Source of the DNA: a virus | Taxonomy: Duplodnaviria; Heunggongvirae; Uroviricota; Caudoviricetes | Length of the DNA: 64,000 nucleotides | Virus record (IMG/VR): IMGVR_UViG_3300021431_000080 | Coordinates: 4,460-68,459 of that record | Direction: 5' to 3' (one strand) | Shown here: positions 5,507 to 47,440 of the stretch, in pieces | Position numbering within the stretch: the first letter of the stretch is position 1 | How the letters are laid out: the number at the start of each line of letters is the position of its first letter | The notes under the pieces: model-generated | Told to the model about the DNA's origin: nothing | Seen by the model: the letters and a program-made list of their open reading frames with translations, nothing else | Databases searched by the model: none | Made by a program: the position numbers and the translations under genes

Positions 5507-7066
5507 ATGCTGACAGCGAGATTGATAGAAGACAACAGGTTTCTCATCGTGGAGGGAAATCCCGATGAGCTTGCCCATGTTAGGATGGAGTTCACGAAGA
5601 AGATCAACAACTGGTATATAATCAAGAGTAAGAACAAGGATGCCAATGTTGACGAGTCTTTCATGAACAACGTCGGCATGATCCCTGTCGGTCTGTGGGT
5701 GGAACTTATCAACGCCTGCAAGAAGTTCAACTATGTGCTTACTTTCTACAGCGACTTTGAAGATAGGACAAGGGATATGTCCGTCACATACGACGGTTTC
5801 AAGGAATATGTCGACAACCTCTTCAGTAAGTCTGGAATGACTCTCAGGGAGTACCAGATTCAGGGTGCCTTCAACATGCTTTCCTACAAGAATTGCTGTG
5901 TTGAGATTTCAACTTCTGGTGGTAAGACCGTCATCTCTTATGTCCTGTTCAGGTATATGATTGATGTTCTGAAACTTAAGCATATTTTGTTTGTTACTCC
6001 AAAGACAAACCTCACTACACAGTCCGCTGACAAGTTCATACTCTATGACAAGGACAACCAAATAGAGTCCAACTGGACGCATTCTGAGATACATGCCGAC
6101 GCAAAGAAGAAGAAAGTCTACGATGACAACATTGTTTTCGGAAACTACCAGTCTTTGAGATCCAAGAAGCCTGAGTTTTTCGACCAGTTTGACGCTGTGA
6201 TTCTCGACGAGGCTCATCACGGTCAGAACAGATCCTGCAGGACTATTGTAAAGAAATGCAGAAACGTCAAGTACAAAATCGGCATGACAGGAACTTTTCC
6301 TGATGATGGTTCCTATGACAGTTTCGTCTTGCAGTCATATTTCGGTCCTGTTGTGTTCAGGTTTACTTCATACGAGCTTATCAACGTCGAGAAATTCGCC
6401 ACTCCCGTTCATGTGACGATGGTTGGTCTGAAATATCTCGACGAGGAGAAGAACAAGGCTCTGTTTGACCTCAGGAATGTCAGCAAGAAGGATGATCCGA
6501 CAATAGGCAACAAGATTCTCAACGAGGAGAAAGTTCAGGTCAGGAAAGATCCGAAGAGGTTCAGCTTCATTGTGAATATGATAAGCAAAGTAACGAAGAA
6601 TACACTGGTGCTCTTCTCGGATATCCAAAACGAGTATGGAAGGAATGTGTACACTTCTTTGAAGGAGAATACAACGAAGGATGTGTTCTATATCGACGGT
6701 AACATCGCCACATCGACGAGGCAGAAGATGATTGACTCGATGGAGAACGATCTTAGCGGAAACACAATCATTGTAGCTTCTATACAGTGTTTCTCCGAAG
6801 GTATCGACATAGCTAATATGTGGAACATATTCCTGATAGAGACCACTAAGTCTGAGAACACCATAGCCCAGATCCTTGGTCGAGGTATGAGGCGTTTCGA
6901 GGGAAAGGAGAAGACGATGATGATCGATTTCATCGACGACTTCAGGTATGGTGGCGGTTTCTTCTCTGAGAACTATCTGTGGAAGCACGGTATGGACAGG
7001 ATGTCAATCTACCAGAAGAGGGGGTTCCCCTGTAATCTAATTTCTGTTGACTTGAACGAGAAATAA
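5507..7066 (+). CDS. uvsW: SF2 DNA helicase, UvsW-like
   Basis: LREYQ Q-motif, Walker A STSGGKT, DEAHH, GMTGT, QILGRGMR; N-terminal domain like T4 UvsW. Confidence 0.85.
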   Translation: MLTARLIEDNRFLIVEGNPDELAHVRMEFTKKINNWYIIKSKNKDANVDESFMNNVGMIPVGLWVELINACKKFNYVLTFYSDFEDRTRDMSVTYDGFKEYVDNLFSKSGMTLREYQIQGAFNMLSYKNCCVEISTSGGKTVISYVLFRYMIDVLKLKHILFVTPKTNLTTQSADKFILYDKDNQIESNWTHSEIHADAKKKKVYDDNIVFGNYQSLRSKKPEFFDQFDAVILDEAHHGQNRSCRTIVKKCRNVKYKIGMTGTFPDDGSYDSFVLQSYFGPVVFRFTSYELINVEKFATPVHVTMVGLKYLDEEKNKALFDLRNVSKKDDPTIGNKILNEEKVQVRKDPKRFSFIVNMISKVTKNTLVLFSDIQNEYGRNVYTSLKENTTKDVFYIDGNIATSTRQKMIDSMENDLSGNTIIVASIQCFSEGIDIANMWNIFLIETTKSENTIAQILGRGMRRFEGKEKTMMIDFIDDFRYGGGFFSENYLWKHGMDRMSIYQKRGFPCNLISVDLNEK

Positions 7067-7091: not shown

Positions 7092-7616
7092 ATGAACAGA
7101 ATGAACAGAAAAGACAGGGTGATTCTTGAGGAATTGCAGTCGAAATATGGAATGGATGCGCTTGCCACCGCTATAATGAACGTGCAGAACGCTGTGGCTC
7201 CAGAAGCTGTCAGCGACGGTGTCCAGCAGGTTCAGATGTCTCCAGCAGAAATTGTACTTGAGTATATCAAGAGAATCGAGGGTTACAGAATTAGGCTCAG
7301 GGAGATTCACTGGATGTCGGATCACAGATCGACACACGAACTTGCAGACTCGTTGATGTACGACCTCGCTTCATACGAGGACTCCATCGCTGAGGACATG
7401 ATGGGAATAATCGGCTACAGGATAAAAATCGGAACAATAATCCCGAAACTTCCGAAAGCCACCGAGTTGAAGGCTCTCATCAATGAGATTGTGAACGACA
7501 CAATCTGTGTTAAGCAGAATATAGAGGAGTTTCCTGTGTGGACAGGTATATGCAACATTCTAGACGAATGTGTCCATATGCTCAACAAGTCACAGTATCT
7601 TTCTGATTTCAAATAA
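7092..7616 (+). CDS. Ferritin/Dps-like four-helix protein (DUF5856-like) with N-terminal KYG leader
   Basis: EIHW...THELAD...D...YEDSIAEDMMG pattern of Dps/ferritin-like di-iron folds. Confidence 0.6.
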   Translation: MNRMNRKDRVILEELQSKYGMDALATAIMNVQNAVAPEAVSDGVQQVQMSPAEIVLEYIKRIEGYRIRLREIHWMSDHRSTHELADSLMYDLASYEDSIAEDMMGIIGYRIKIGTIIPKLPKATELKALINEIVNDTICVKQNIEEFPVWTGICNILDECVHMLNKSQYLSDFK

Positions 7617-25460: not shown

Positions 25461-26104
25461 TGGGATATCTTGAAGACTATCTGAAGAACAAAAGCGGGAA
25501 GCAGGAAGCTCTCGCTTTTGATTATCTTATAAATGACCTGCTTCGTGACAATCTTACAGGGAACGACAAGCAGAAGAATATAGGTGGATTGAACATGGAG
25601 AAGGACGCTCCTACGAGCTTCGTCCCTTCGATGTTTTACATATTTGTGTACTTCAATGGAGAGAAATCCGTTCTTGGAAACGCTGAGTTCTATGATATGG
25701 TTCCGTTAATCTTTTGTACAAGCTTCAGTGCTGAATCGATAACAGGGATAAATTTTAACTATGTTCCGAATGATGTTAGGGCTGCTTTCCTTGATATACT
25801 GTCTGGAAGTTATCCGTCGTTCTATGGGCACGATATGTACGATGACGGATTCCGAGTCAACGAGAAGCTTTCTGGAAAACTTGTGGATGCTACAACCCTT
25901 ACTTCTGTCTTGAACCTTATGAAGACACGTCTTGGTGTCGATCTTAACAAGTGTATAAGGACATATAATAGGAAGAATGTTCTGAAGGCAAGGATGATTG
26001 AGATGGATATGTGGCAGTACATACCTTATCTCTCGTTCAAGGACGCTGTCCGTGGGATAAATCTTGCTAAAGTGCAGATGAGTTTGGTTCACGATAGCAA
26101 ATAA
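25460..26104 (+). CDS. DNA end protector protein, T4 gp2-like
   Basis: FYDMVPLIF...GINFNYVP, IRTY motifs; adjacent to gp4-like gene and portal. Confidence 0.6.
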   Translation: MGYLEDYLKNKSGKQEALAFDYLINDLLRDNLTGNDKQKNIGGLNMEKDAPTSFVPSMFYIFVYFNGEKSVLGNAEFYDMVPLIFCTSFSAESITGINFNYVPNDVRAAFLDILSGSYPSFYGHDMYDDGFRVNEKLSGKLVDATTLTSVLNLMKTRLGVDLNKCIRTYNRKNVLKARMIEMDMWQYIPYLSFKDAVRGINLAKVQMSLVHDSK

Positions 26105-26116
26105 ATACAGAAAACA
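26101..26116 (+). promoter_or_regulatory. Class III late motif before portal
   Basis: ATAAATACAGAAAACA. Confidence 0.65.
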
Positions 26117-26129
26117 TTTGTGCAAATAA

Positions 26130-27902
26130 ATGCCTAAGTATATACTAAAGACACTTGATTCCAACACGAACAGTAATTTCAGGGGATCCAATCGACCAAT
26201 AGAGAGGAACCTTCTGAATCTCAGTGCACTTGGAATCAGATGGAATTCCGAGGTCATCAGCAAGGTCAGGACGGATATCGACACCAACTATGACCAGAAC
26301 GGAATGGGAGGTCAGGGCACCGGCATGATGTTCCGTGGCGAGGACATGTACACGAGAGCCCACCAGAACATCGCTGGAAACAACAAGTACATCGCCTTCC
26401 ATGACCAGTCCTATATAATGAGGAGGGATTTCCTAAGGAAGTTCGCCCTTCAGGACGAGATTGACAATGTGCTTGAGACTATCGCCGATGAGGTCATAAT
26501 CAACGATGATATGCACTATTTCGCATATCCAAACACAACTCAGCTGAGATCCATACTCAAGCCGGACAAAGGCAAGAAGATAGTCGATGAGTTGAACGCC
26601 GCCTACAGGAGGGTGTACCACATGTTTCACTTCAATGAGTCGAACGATGCGTGGCACTATGTGAAGAAACTCCTCGTCGACGGTTTCCTTGCGTTTGAGA
26701 TTGTCTATTCCGACTCAAGCGACGGTAAACTCGCCAAGGATATCATAGCGTTCAAGGAACTTGATCCTATAACTCTGCAGCCTGAAATCAGGAAAGGTGA
26801 GAAAGGTGACTACAAGGTATGGGTTGTCAACAAGGGTGATAAGCAGAACCAGAGGGAGCTTCCAGACAGTAACGTTATTTACATCTCGTGGGCTAAGAAC
26901 AACTTTGTCAGCAATTTCTCATACTGCGAGAGGCTCATCCGTCCTTTCAACATGCTCAGGACAATTGAGAACTCAAGGATTATCTGGAATGTCCAGAACG
27001 CTCAGAAGAGAATCAAGATTGTGGTTCCTGTCGGTTCCGAGAGTGAGCAGGTTGCTAGGACAAGGCTCCGTGAACTTGAGGCTTACTACAAGGAGGACAT
27101 TACAATTGACAACATGTCTGGTGAACTCACTGTGAACGGTCAGCCGAAGTTCAGTTTCGCTAAGACAATGGTGTTTCCATCGAAGGACGGTACGTCTACA
27201 GAAATTGGAGAGATTGGAATCGAGGGACACGATCTCAACTCGACAGAGCCTTTGAAGTGGTTCTGGCAGAGGTTCATCATAGCAACCAGACTTCCGAAGG
27301 ATCGTTTCAACATGATCTTCGACGGAAACGAGACATCTGCCATCCCCGACAACAGCAACATGACAAGGGAGGAGTGGAGATTCTCTCTGTTCATCGACAG
27401 AATCCGTGGTATATTCAAGGAGATTCTTGTGAAGCCGATGTGGATTCAGTTCTGTCTGCACAATCAGGAGTTCGCAAGCAACGATGTTCTAAAGAACGCC
27501 ATCGGTCTCACCTTCACCGAGGAGAATATCTTCAGACTCGCAAAGGAAGCCGCTAACCTCAACGCTGGTGCATCGCTTATCCAGACTCTCTCTGGACTGA
27601 ACGGCAGCGACGGAAAGCCTGTTTTCAGTATGAAGTTCCTTGTCCAGAAGTATCTGAATATGACGGATGATGACTGGAAACTGAACGAGAAGATGAAAGC
27701 TGACGAAGCCAAGGAAGCTGCCAACAACGCTGCCCAAAATCAGGGAGCACCGGGAGCTGCTCCGATGGGTGGTGACATAGGTGGAGGCTTCGATATGGGA
27801 GCCGCTGGTGGAGAGTTCGGTGGAGAACCAGCTCCTCCCCCAGAACCTGCGGAAATTCCAGAGGAACCACCAGCAGAACCAGCCCCCACACCAGAGGTAT
27901 AA
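26130..27902 (+). CDS. Portal protein, T4 gp20-like
   Basis: EIDNVLETIADEVI, KKLLVDG.LAFE, RPFNMLR.IE.SRIIW, YFW-like KWFWQR, P..R; low-complexity C-tail. Confidence 0.9.
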   Translation: MPKYILKTLDSNTNSNFRGSNRPIERNLLNLSALGIRWNSEVISKVRTDIDTNYDQNGMGGQGTGMMFRGEDMYTRAHQNIAGNNKYIAFHDQSYIMRRDFLRKFALQDEIDNVLETIADEVIINDDMHYFAYPNTTQLRSILKPDKGKKIVDELNAAYRRVYHMFHFNESNDAWHYVKKLLVDGFLAFEIVYSDSSDGKLAKDIIAFKELDPITLQPEIRKGEKGDYKVWVVNKGDKQNQRELPDSNVIYISWAKNNFVSNFSYCERLIRPFNMLRTIENSRIIWNVQNAQKRIKIVVPVGSESEQVARTRLRELEAYYKEDITIDNMSGELTVNGQPKFSFAKTMVFPSKDGTSTEIGEIGIEGHDLNSTEPLKWFWQRFIIATRLPKDRFNMIFDGNETSAIPDNSNMTREEWRFSLFIDRIRGIFKEILVKPMWIQFCLHNQEFASNDVLKNAIGLTFTEENIFRLAKEAANLNAGASLIQTLSGLNGSDGKPVFSMKFLVQKYLNMTDDDWKLNEKMKADEAKEAANNAAQNQGAPGAAPMGGDIGGGFDMGAAGGEFGGEPAPPPEPAEIPEEPPAEPAPTPEV

Positions 27903-27958: not shown

Positions 27959-28678
27959 TCATAGCTTGTGTGAGGGGATCTGTGCTGTGTTGTAATCTTG
28001 TGCAAGTTCTGGATATTCCCTCATTATTTTATTCCTTGTTAACCTGATGTCTCTCTCGTAATGAGGATTTCTTGCATATCGTTTCCTATCTTTGTTGACA
28101 AACTGCCCAGATTTCAGCAATTCGTCTACACTGACTTTTCCATCCTGAAGATAGTCCGATTTCATTATTTGTATGTATGGTTCGAAACAGTCGTCCTGTG
28201 TGTCATAAGTGACAGTTGTCCTGTCATCCCATTGACCGATTGATATCACCGAACCAGTTCTCTGTGCTCTCGGATCAGTTCCGAAGTGTGATTCGCATTG
28301 CATCTGGGCGAGCATCAACGGAAGATCGAAATTGTGCTTGTAGCATAGATATACGACGTTCTCAGGATTGAATCTGATATTGTCTATCGATTTCCCATTT
28401 CTTTTTAGGTTGGTGTCAATAAGACTGATAACGGAGTTCAATTTCTTGAGGAACAGGTCGTAATCTGATTTTTCCATACCATACGGATTGTCAGCTTCCT
28501 GTCTGTGTTCCGCATTATGCTTGTTTACAGCAGTGTCTATGCCCTTGACACCACCTATGACCATACCTCCAGCGAGAACATAAGGAAGAATCTTCCTGTA
28601 GTTTATAGCTTCGAGAAGAGCATCCTGACCGTATTTCGACACAAGATCCTCGATTGTGTCTTTGTCCTTCCTGTCCAT
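27959..28678 (-). CDS. Lysozyme-like peptidoglycan hydrolase (glucosaminidase/GH73-like) with KYG leader and hydrophobic segment
   Basis: LMLAQMQCESHFGT catalytic Glu motif, C-term RYARNPHYE (YAxDPxY-like). Confidence 0.7.
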   Translation of the reverse strand: MDRKDKDTIEDLVSKYGQDALLEAINYRKILPYVLAGGMVIGGVKGIDTAVNKHNAEHRQEADNPYGMEKSDYDLFLKKLNSVISLIDTNLKRNGKSIDNIRFNPENVVYLCYKHNFDLPLMLAQMQCESHFGTDPRAQRTGSVISIGQWDDRTTVTYDTQDDCFEPYIQIMKSDYLQDGKVSVDELLKSGQFVNKDRKRYARNPHYERDIRLTRNKIMREYPELAQDYNTAQIPSHKL

Positions 28679-28950: not shown

Positions 28951-28960
28951 TATCTTTGCA
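28951..28960 (+). promoter_or_regulatory. Class I: Bacteroidota sigmaA -7 element before ligA
   Basis: AAAAAATCAG TATCTTTGCA matches TAnnTTTG. Confidence 0.8.
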
Positions 28961-45729: not shown

Positions 45730-47370
45730 TTACATTGTGTATGCTTGATAGACATCCTTCGTTTCATCGTCTGCAGAAGGGTTTTTTGTTATGTACACTT
45801 TATGATCAAATTTGAAAGGTTTCCAGTCTTTTACAGGAATAGTCTTACACACAGGTTTCTTTATAAGATCTCCAAACTCATCAAGGAAATCTTCCAGGAT
45901 ATAATCGTTCTTGTTCATTCTCATTACAGCGAGAGCAGCATTGAGTTTTGCTGTATGAAGCTTCATCGACCAGTCGATTGCTGTAGCGTAATCTATTGCA
46001 TATATGTAGTATAGATCTTTGTCGCCCATAGTGACTTTGAATTGTTGACAAGTTCTTCTTGTTGCTACATTCTCTATTGCTGACAGGACAGGTTTTGCGT
46101 AATTTGAGTAGAATTGTTTCACCATATCGTCTACTTCACGTGCATCGAATGCTGGAAAATGGATTTTACAATTCATGAACTTTACGCTGTAGTCTTTCAT
46201 GTCGCCGTAGGCATATGCTGGATATTTTATCTTTTTGCTTTTTGTTTCCTTTTTCTCAGGTGCAGTCAACGAGACACTCATGTTATTTTTATCAGGAAGT
46301 GGAATTTCTTCACCTTTCTTCGGATGTGTCGAACCATAAATGTGAGGTATAATGAGAGGATCGACTTTCATCAGATCTCCGTCAGAGTTGTTCATAAGCT
46401 CACAAAGTTCATGTCTGTATTGCTTTGCTGCCTTTAGTGCTTCTTTTTGGTCTTTTCCTGCAGCGTAACACATCTCTCCATCATCGAAGAAGAATTCAAA
46501 TCTCCTGTAATTTCCTCTCTTTATTTCATTATTGAGTCTTTCGTACCATCCGCCTGCAAGAAGTGATAATGCCACAATTTCCTTTCCGAGAAGTTTTGCA
46601 TTCTGTTCATTGTCAGCTTTCACTCTAAGAACCTCATTATTGCTGAGTGTGACATAGTATTCTTTGAAATCTATATTCTTGACTTCCTCTGGAGTCATTA
46701 TTAGACTGTCATCGTAATATATAGACGAGTTGACTGAAGAATCTTTCTTTGCATTTGTGGATGCAGCGGCTGCGCCTATTCCTGCAGCAGTGCCTATTCC
46801 GATGAGTTTTTTTAACCAGCTTGGTGAATTCTCCTTCATTTCGCTGTATTTCTCTTTTAATTTCGGCCATGCGAATGGACCGAGTGATGCACCAAGAAGA
46901 GCAGCCGCTGTTCCCTTTATGACTTTCCCTGTTCCGCTTACAGCCCTGTGTGGGATGCTGTAGTTTCCGGGGTTTGCAAGGTTGTCAGCCCAGAATCCAG
47001 GCATGAGCCTGTTTCTCCACGACTGTTTGTCCTCCCATCTCTGTCTGATTCTGTGTGAGAGTGCTCCGACACCTGCGAGTGCAGCCAAAGCTGGTGATAT
47101 AAGTACGGTTATCGCGAAACTCGGAATCGACTGGAGTTTTCCGCTTAGTCCCCTTACGGTTGAACCGCCTGTCCTGTCGAACTGGCTCGAAACGGTTGGA
47201 TGGTATTGGGTATTGAAATCCCTGTCCTTCCTCTTTTCGTTGAGTTCGTCGAATATTTCCGTGGCTCCGTATTTCTCTGTAAGGAGTTTGACTGCGGAAA
47301 GATCCGATTCATTTATCTCCTTTATTTCCTCGTTTGTATTTTCCTGTGAATACAGTTTTTCTACTATCAT
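45730..47370 (-). CDS. Late protein with KYG leader, hydrophobic segments and repeated beta-beta-alpha modules (candidate ejected/internal protein)
   Basis: 546 aa; CAGATAAATA upstream; see findings. Confidence 0.65.
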   Translation of the reverse strand: MIVEKLYSQENTNEEIKEINESDLSAVKLLTEKYGATEIFDELNEKRKDRDFNTQYHPTVSSQFDRTGGSTVRGLSGKLQSIPSFAITVLISPALAALAGVGALSHRIRQRWEDKQSWRNRLMPGFWADNLANPGNYSIPHRAVSGTGKVIKGTAAALLGASLGPFAWPKLKEKYSEMKENSPSWLKKLIGIGTAAGIGAAAASTNAKKDSSVNSSIYYDDSLIMTPEEVKNIDFKEYYVTLSNNEVLRVKADNEQNAKLLGKEIVALSLLAGGWYERLNNEIKRGNYRRFEFFFDDGEMCYAAGKDQKEALKAAKQYRHELCELMNNSDGDLMKVDPLIIPHIYGSTHPKKGEEIPLPDKNNMSVSLTAPEKKETKSKKIKYPAYAYGDMKDYSVKFMNCKIHFPAFDAREVDDMVKQFYSNYAKPVLSAIENVATRRTCQQFKVTMGDKDLYYIYAIDYATAIDWSMKLHTAKLNAALAVMRMNKNDYILEDFLDEFGDLIKKPVCKTIPVKDWKPFKFDHKVYITKNPSADDETKDVYQAYTM

Positions 47371-47430: not shown

Positions 47431-47440
47431 TATCTTTGCA
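47431..47440 (+). promoter_or_regulatory. Class I promoter before primase
   Basis: AAATAATCAG TATCTTTGCA. Confidence 0.8.

Follow-up and report, generated by a model that had tools for sequence, protein, structure and literature searches.

Why should a Dps-type miniferritin and a lysin encoded by the same phage, two proteins with unrelated bodies, open with recognizably similar stretches of amino acids? The question is posed by a 64,000-nucleotide stretch of DNA (hereinafter, the window) that comprises bases 4460-68459 of the 164,270-bp IMG/VR record IMGVR_UViG_3300021431_000080. The sequence-only reading of the window attributed a common N-terminal leader to three late proteins, namely, a ferritin-like protein, a lysozyme and a 546-aa protein, and took this leader for an address tag that loads diverse enzymes into the phage head. 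The translations of all three proteins are as given in that reading; the membership of the set and the mechanism were both overstated. So which proteins actually carry the module, where else does it occur, and what might it do?

The phage itself sets the frame for any answer. The completeness of the 164-kb record is estimated by CheckV at 57%, and because a copy identical to the 546-aa protein of the window is found on a 286-kb contig, the size of the complete genome can be put at about 290 kb. The source is an uncultivated phage of this size from gut or rumen, and its clade is best explained as one of T4-related jumbo phages that infect Bacteroidota. Apart from a T4-type portal, the phage encodes neck proteins, RecA/UvsX-like and helicase genes and an NAD-dependent ligase; judged by single proteins, its nearest named relatives are the Prevotella Lak megaphages and crAss-like phages. 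Promoters of the TAnnTTTG type are found upstream of the plus-strand DNA-metabolism genes, which fits a Bacteroidota host. The features that are discussed below are collected in Table 1.

Table 1. Positions in the window of the two module carriers and of the associated genes and sequence elements
Feature	Position	Strand	Basis or remark
Dps-type miniferritin, 174 aa from the ATG at 7092	7092..7616	+	Pfam DUF5856, E 3.4e-6; PHROG 858, a Dps family
Shared module on the Dps, 27 residues, MNRKDRVILEELQSKYGMDALATAIMN	7101..7181	+	phmmer, HMM, alignment; predicted helices
Linker of the Dps, variable, acidic, disordered	7194..7241	+	pLDDT <50 at residues 32-44; identity 0.50
13-mer ahead of the Dps gene, ATAAATAAAGAAA	7063..7075	+	16 nt upstream of ATG 7092; same element before the Dps gene of G001
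T4-type portal (gp20 family)	26130..27902	+	Pfam Portal_T4, E 3.5e-55; PHROG 213
Late-like 13-mer of the portal gene	26101-26113	+	upstream of the portal gene, 26130..27902
GH73 (glucosaminidase-fold) lysin, 239 aa	27959..28678	-	Pfam Glucosaminidase, E 8e-4; eight homologues
Shared module on the lysin, MDRKDKDTIEDLVSKYGQDALLEAINY	28598..28678	-	phmmer, HMM, alignment; predicted helices
Gly/Ala-rich hydrophobic segment of the lysin, 15 residues, ILPYVLAGGMVIGGV	28547..28591	-	signal anchor or SAR-like; basic YRK in front
ORF76, small conserved protein, 76 aa	28680..28910	-	TAA-g-ATG coupling to the lysin
13-mer ahead of ORF76, ATAAATAGAAAAA	28926..28938	-	15 nt before the ORF76 ATG; conserved before the ORF76 orthologue of G001
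546-aa membrane protein	45730..47370	-	KYG region 47239-47304; TM residues 79-106 = 47053-47136

The shared module and its membership

Read from position 7101, the Dps-like protein begins with MNRKDRVILEELQSKYGMDALATAI, and the lysin, read from 28678, with MDRKDKDTIEDLVSKYGQDALLEAI. An in-frame ATG at 7092 extends the former to MNRMNRKDRV..., in agreement with the M-x-R-M-[SN]-RKDRV beginning of the homologues, and this codon is, by comparison with them, probably the true start of the Dps. Over 27 ungapped positions, the two leaders share 15 residues, and when the 29-residue leaders were compared by phmmer to the 2,953 six-frame segments of the whole 164-kb record, each retrieved the other at E-values of 7e-5 to 1e-4, the next match having E>5. 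Thus, the leader that the earlier reading had seen as common to the ferritin-like protein and the lysozyme is borne out at an E-value of about 1e-4 within the genome. In segments this short, and with heptad patterns that recur in helices, a chance resemblance between the two N-termini has to be considered; for this pair, it is hardly credible, given the wide gap between the reciprocal match and the next one, and the conservation of the motif in both families in other phages.

The similarity does not extend to the DNA in the way that would be expected of a recent copy. Different codons are used at 6 of the 15 identical residues, and the upstream DNA of the two genes is unrelated, so the likeness is held at the protein level; a recent DNA duplication and a common expression cassette are ruled out on the same grounds. 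Taken together, these comparisons indicate that two unrelated late proteins open with a homologous 27-residue module which is under selection at the protein level.

The 546-aa membrane protein was examined as a third carrier and rejected. It is matched by phmmer only at E-values of 20-37, and is missed by the leader HMMs constructed from two and from eighteen sequences. Furthermore, in five of its nine homologues, the EKYG of the window is replaced by EKYE, so that the glycine of the KYG motif gives way to glutamate, and the family lacks the RKDRV ahead of the motif. The best reading of the resemblance is chance, and the set of three shrinks to two; the regular expression that had been offered as linking all three proteins was derived from these very proteins, and matches them for no other reason. 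Besides its strong transmembrane segment at residues 79-106, the 546-aa protein contains two more Gly/Ala-rich hydrophobic stretches (residues about 150-165 and 188-203). The beginning of the protein, MI[IV]EK-x-Y, is highly conserved across its family, in which EKRKDRD is often found past the family's own N-terminal helices. No Pfam or PHROG match was found for this protein.

Does the module occur in any other context? The leader HMM detected no carrier beyond the Dps and the lysin in the entire 164-kb record, again the Dps and the lysin and nothing else in a related 151-kb record (G001), and no carrier in Lak-C1. A scan of the proteome and of relatives, of the kind that the sequence-only reading had proposed, recovered the Dps and the lysin, in both records, and yielded neither further carriers nor the 546-aa protein. 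When a profile of the module was run against 1.84 billion representative proteins, 16 matches were obtained at E<0.001, namely, Dps genes or fragments, lysins, and four repeat proteins in which the profile is matched partially, in multiple stretches. At the DNA level, a degenerate pattern of the module led to a single true carrier in IMG/VR, the Dps gene of G001, and to four Dps genes when the JGI metagenomes were scanned, the remaining matches being internal or C-terminal chance occurrences.

One apparent leader on a third body (P0025) was traced to a chimeric 1.2-kb scaffold (ENA ERZ922487 scaffold_111431) and rejected: the GC content jumps from 25-43% to 54-59% immediately past the leader. 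In this scaffold, a phage Dps leader of low GC content is joined to unrelated DNA, and the result is a false protein in a public collection. An unbiased search of the record for other shared N-termini returned only whole-protein paralogues located in a small-gene array. The array, located beyond the window at genome positions 145600-156800, includes small paralogues with the start MT[QEN]EEKELLLKDLC, which look like whole-protein paralogues rather than carriers of a shared tag. Thus, as far as sequence searches of this depth reach, the module is confined to two families. The earlier notion of a module that sits on proteins with unrelated bodies holds for the Dps and the lysin, and that of 'diverse enzymes' does not survive, with two families found among 1.84 billion representative proteins.

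Conservation of the module in the two families

The module is kept in 8 lysin and 12 Dps homologues, every one of them metagenomic, with the consensus [MIL]-[SN]-RKDRV-[IL]-LE-x-L-x3-YG-x-D-x-L-x2-A-I. Within this consensus, RKDRV is steadier than KYG, which is represented by EYG or QYG in many copies of the Dps. The column identity in the Dps family is 0.79 for the leader, 0.77 for the body and 0.50 for the linker between them, and the corresponding values in the lysin family are 0.71, 0.76 and 0.52; judging by these alignments, the orthologues of both families conserve the module as well as they conserve their catalytic bodies. The genomic context is conserved as well. In G001, the arrangement is as in the window, with a helicase followed by the Dps and with the ligase, ORF76-lysin and portal genes together, and the two carriers co-occur in synteny in all three long contigs available (the window, a 122-kb ENA contig and G001).

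The two copies of the module do not evolve in the same manner. Near-invariant RKDRV in the Dps corresponds to NEDIK, KKDRD or RKDKD in lysins, and this faster evolution of the lysin leader is consistent with the two copies being constrained differently. By hand count, in the three genomes in which both leaders are available, they share 15, 10 and 9 identical residues within a genome and 12, 12 and 7 between genomes; the leaders being no more alike within than between genomes, there is no sign of co-evolution with a single partner. Also by hand count, the Dps leader of the window agrees at 18 of the 27 positions with the leader of a lysin from another phage (P0004).

These observations bear on the possibility that the module is simply a mosaic without a common function, whereby one gene captured the 5' end of the other and each copy was then retained for a local reason of its own, for example, to determine the topology of the lysin and to aid the assembly of the Dps. 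The greater drift of the lysin leader, the lack of within-genome co-variation and the existence of leaderless versions of both bodies in other phages are all compatible with such a history. We nevertheless view it as rather unlikely because both families retain YG and the hydrophobic positions while the bodies fall to 40-60% identity, the cross-family identity reaches 18 of 27 positions, and the codon differences show long-term purifying selection for the same residues.

The two carriers and their expression

The first carrier is, by all indications, a Dps. The AlphaFold model of the body is a four-helix bundle, for which all 50 of the 50 best PDB matches are Dps proteins, the ferroxidase His/His/Asp/Glu residues align to those of Listeria Dps, and H70, H79, D94 and E98 are invariant across the alignment of the family. 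Residues 32-47 of the model, between the leader and the body, are disordered. Homologues of the crAss-phage DpsA type align from residue 38-50 onward and accordingly are leaderless. A Sec or Tat signal on the Dps was considered and discarded, given that there is no hydrophobic segment and that acidic residues separate the basic cluster from a short hydrophobic patch. Terminal extensions are used for DNA binding in many Dps proteins, and the protein of the window resembles Dps proteins with N-terminal extensions in its four-helix bundle, its ferroxidase ligands and a flexible extension on the outer side of the subunit; it differs from them in that the extension is a conserved, near-neutral predicted hairpin that is common to a lysin. 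We found no paper that mentions DUF5856 and none that ties Dps to the virion cargo of crAss001. Leaderless Dps-like genes are located within the structural module, between the major capsid and tail tubular protein genes, in the crAss-like phage cr108_1 (MT774385.1 35838-36221), and in a tRNA island in cr85_1.

The second carrier is a probable endolysin of the phage. The AlphaFold model of its body matches LytB, Auto, AtlE and FlgJ. Directly after the leader comes the Gly/Ala-rich hydrophobic segment (mean Kyte-Doolittle value 1.89, with 5 Gly+Ala), which is conserved, with K/R in front, in 9 of 9 members of the family. In the homologue from Lak-C1 (MK250029.1; L005 1273-1872), a classical cleavable-type signal peptide replaces the leader and the anchor, and in a leaderless homologue (L002), there is a plain N-terminal membrane anchor. 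The anchor segment together with the export signals of the leaderless relatives suggests that the lysin is exported to the periplasm, with the leader left in the cytoplasm. The topology that follows from the positive-inside rule and from the signals of the relatives is that of a protein which is probably exported by Sec and anchored N-in, with its leader facing the cytoplasm.

The lysin resembles SAR and other signal-anchored endolysins in that its muralytic domain is preceded by an N-terminal segment that is Gly/Ala-rich and weakly hydrophobic, with the basic residues at its cytoplasmic end. Unlike the SAR endolysins, in which the cytoplasmic tails are very short, it has a conserved, highly charged and apparently structured 29-residue domain ahead of the anchor, so that it lacks the short tail that lets a SAR anchor leave the bilayer. 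Should the module be a docking handle, we know of no earlier case of a structured cytoplasmic domain ahead of the anchor in an exported phage lysin. Perhaps the closest point of comparison is the SAR endolysin gp22 of phage Mu, in which a short cytoplasmic tail sets the dependence on the releasin gp25 (PMC9239132); the catalytic fold of the lysin of the window is GH73 and not T4-lysozyme-like. No DUF2730 releasin or holin was identified adjoining the lysin gene. The gene that does adjoin it, ORF76, encodes a Gly/Pro/Asn-rich protein without a transmembrane segment and without a Pfam or PHROG match; it is conserved in G001, is found also at L001 2759-2989, and is a candidate partner of the lysin.

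How are these genes expressed? According to the earlier reading, each of the three genes that it considered lies behind an ATAAATA motif. There are 22 copies of ATAAATA in the window compared to 12.5 expected, a number that was reached in 0 of 100 shuffles, and the motif is indeed located 22 nt upstream of the ATG both of the Dps gene (7092) and of the 546-aa gene; the lysin, in contrast, is not directly behind the motif, which precedes the upstream ORF76. ATAAATA is part of a longer 13-mer, ATAAATAnAGAAA, that ends 14-21 nt upstream of the ATGs of the Dps, portal, ORF76-lysin, 804-aa and 121-aa genes. Its sites are at positions 7063, 20995, 23072, 26101 and 28938 of the window and 71703, 74762 and 102891 of the genome, and several large genes of unknown function also start behind it. 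This 13-mer, which we take to resemble the T4 late promoter TATAAATA, is, judging by its sequence and placement, likely to be the late promoter of the phage, and its presence ahead of both carriers implies that both are probably late genes. Late control is expected for the lysin and is informative for the Dps, whose gene is otherwise placed in the replication module, downstream of the helicase. The Bacteroidota -7 element TATCTTTG is found at positions 28951-28958 and 47431-47438 of the window on the plus strand, in divergent intergenic regions. There it is directed toward the plus-strand ligase gene and toward the 369-aa gene, while the late-like motif of the minus-strand genes is placed back to back with it.

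Possible roles: capsid targeting, nucleic acid binding or docking

In the AlphaFold models, the leader consists of two helices that are broken at YG (residues 3-16 and 18-31 in the Dps, 3-16 and 18-36 in the lysin), with pLDDT values of about 57-66 (60-66 in the Dps), and in neither protein do they pack against the body. The module is thus predicted to be a helix-turn-helix hairpin. When the leaders of the Dps and of the lysin were co-folded, the score was 0.25 (mark 0.32), a value that speaks neither for nor against binding. The isolated leader has no match in Pfam at E-values up to 10, Myb and HTH included, and only generic two-helix matches were obtained in the ESM Atlas.

The leader profile also retrieved Myb repeats (P0033), which brings up the possibility that the module is a minimal Myb/SANT-like or HTH-like element that binds nucleic acids. 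On the Dps, such an element would take on the role of a DNA-binding N-terminal tail and, on the lysin, it would be a tether to DNA or a sensor of it at the membrane. Apart from the Myb repeats, the basic RKDR cluster at the N-terminus speaks for this possibility. The hhalign comparison to Myb/SANT, in which 15 columns covering helix 1 and the turn (L-x2-L-x2-KYG) are 32% probable, falls low, there are two helices and no third, which is the recognition helix in these domains, and Pfam is silent; what remains is a resemblance to Myb/SANT, not membership. The net charge of the leader, by hand count about +1 on the Dps and -3 on the lysin, that is, near zero on one carrier and negative on the other, favors protein binding over DNA binding. 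We consider a nucleic acid-binding tail quite improbable.

The most obvious precedent for a short N-terminal segment on unrelated bodies comes from the head of T4. The capsid targeting sequence (CTS) of this phage is about 10 residues long, is removed by gp21 after L/I-x-E and occurs on a set of variable head proteins. A conserved CTS is what brings diverse internal proteins of T4 into the scaffolding core (PMC3012670). By analogy, the hairpin could dock the Dps and the lysin on the prohead core, so that both would be packaged and ejected with the DNA; in a variant of this scenario, a cut by the prohead protease behind [ILV]-[IL]-E may shorten the leader.

Several findings are in line with such an address. 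Like the signal on the internal proteins of T4 (PMC3012670), the module is N-terminal and sits on unrelated bodies, the portal of the phage is of the T4 type, a gp21-type S77 protease is present in its distant relative Lak-C1, and both carriers are behind a late-like 13-mer such as that of the portal gene, an element that is conserved in G001. Moreover, in 14 of 17 sequences, positions 8-10 of the leader read [ILV]-[IL]-E, and a disordered linker follows the leader in the Dps. Nor does the lysin anchor on its own exclude packaging, considering that gp45 of crAss001 is a packaged cargo protein with a predicted transmembrane helix (PMC10172136).

The details of the comparison are less favorable. 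Whereas the likeness to the T4 CTS (IPI, IPII, IPIII, Alt) extends to late genes and a T4-type portal, the module is a predicted hairpin of 27 residues, not a 10-residue peptide, and it marks two conserved proteins only rather than many variable ones. The [IL]-x-E triplets noticed earlier are present, yet they are such as any amphipathic helix would give; the tripeptide lies inside helix 1, upstream of the YG hairpin, and a protein cut after residue 10 would still bear the conserved hairpin. The alignments of the lysin and of the Dps show no conserved cleavage site downstream of the leader. One of the carriers is a signal-anchored lysin in which the leader precedes the anchor and whose relatives are Sec-exported. 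Both genes are conserved, syntenic and core-like, unlike a hypervariable cargo locus. Finally, the 164-kb record and G001, both of which are incomplete, yielded neither an S77 (gp21-type) prohead protease nor a gp23-type capsid protein. An attempt to identify a 535-aa late protein as the capsid protein failed. In Lak-C1 (MK250029.1), the S77 domain is embedded in a 595-aa open frame, the Pfam model of the domain having 198 positions.

On balance, capsid targeting in the manner of T4 appears unlikely. We find it rather unlikely, too, that the hairpin represents a structured capsid-loading signal of a new kind, by means of which a Dps cage and a membrane-inserting lysin are brought into the head and ejected with the DNA.

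The reading that we favor, tentatively, is that the 27-residue hairpin is a portable docking or oligomerization handle which acts on the cytoplasmic side and is not a general address for cargo. In the Dps, the hairpin would hang from the disordered linker of roughly 16 residues, and a dodecamer would display twelve copies of it. In the lysin, the same hairpin would be the cytoplasmic tail directly ahead of the Gly/Ala-rich signal anchor; being folded and highly charged, this tail would fix the N-in topology and would be expected to hinder or gate the release of the anchor, comparably to the dependence on tail and partner in the SAR endolysin of Mu. We infer that the hairpin binds either itself or a common partner, and controls the behavior of the lysin at the membrane. 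Against the docking handle stand the faster evolution of the lysin leader, the lack of a sign of co-evolution and the modest pLDDT of the leader (57-66); furthermore, late co-regulation with virion genes and T4-type head machinery would fit capsid targeting equally.

What sets the module apart from known shared tags is that it is structured, is found in two families, and has a signal-anchored lysin and a Dps as its carriers. In either case, the reach of the finding is narrow, being limited to two protein families that occur in a single clade of uncultivated phages. If the module is a capsid-loading tag after all, the known forms of such tags would be widened, with a possible use in cargo loading. 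If, as we tentatively prefer, it is a docking handle, this would point to a route for the timing of lysis other than a holin or a releasin, and the control of lysis would be linked, via the shared module, to the phage Dps.
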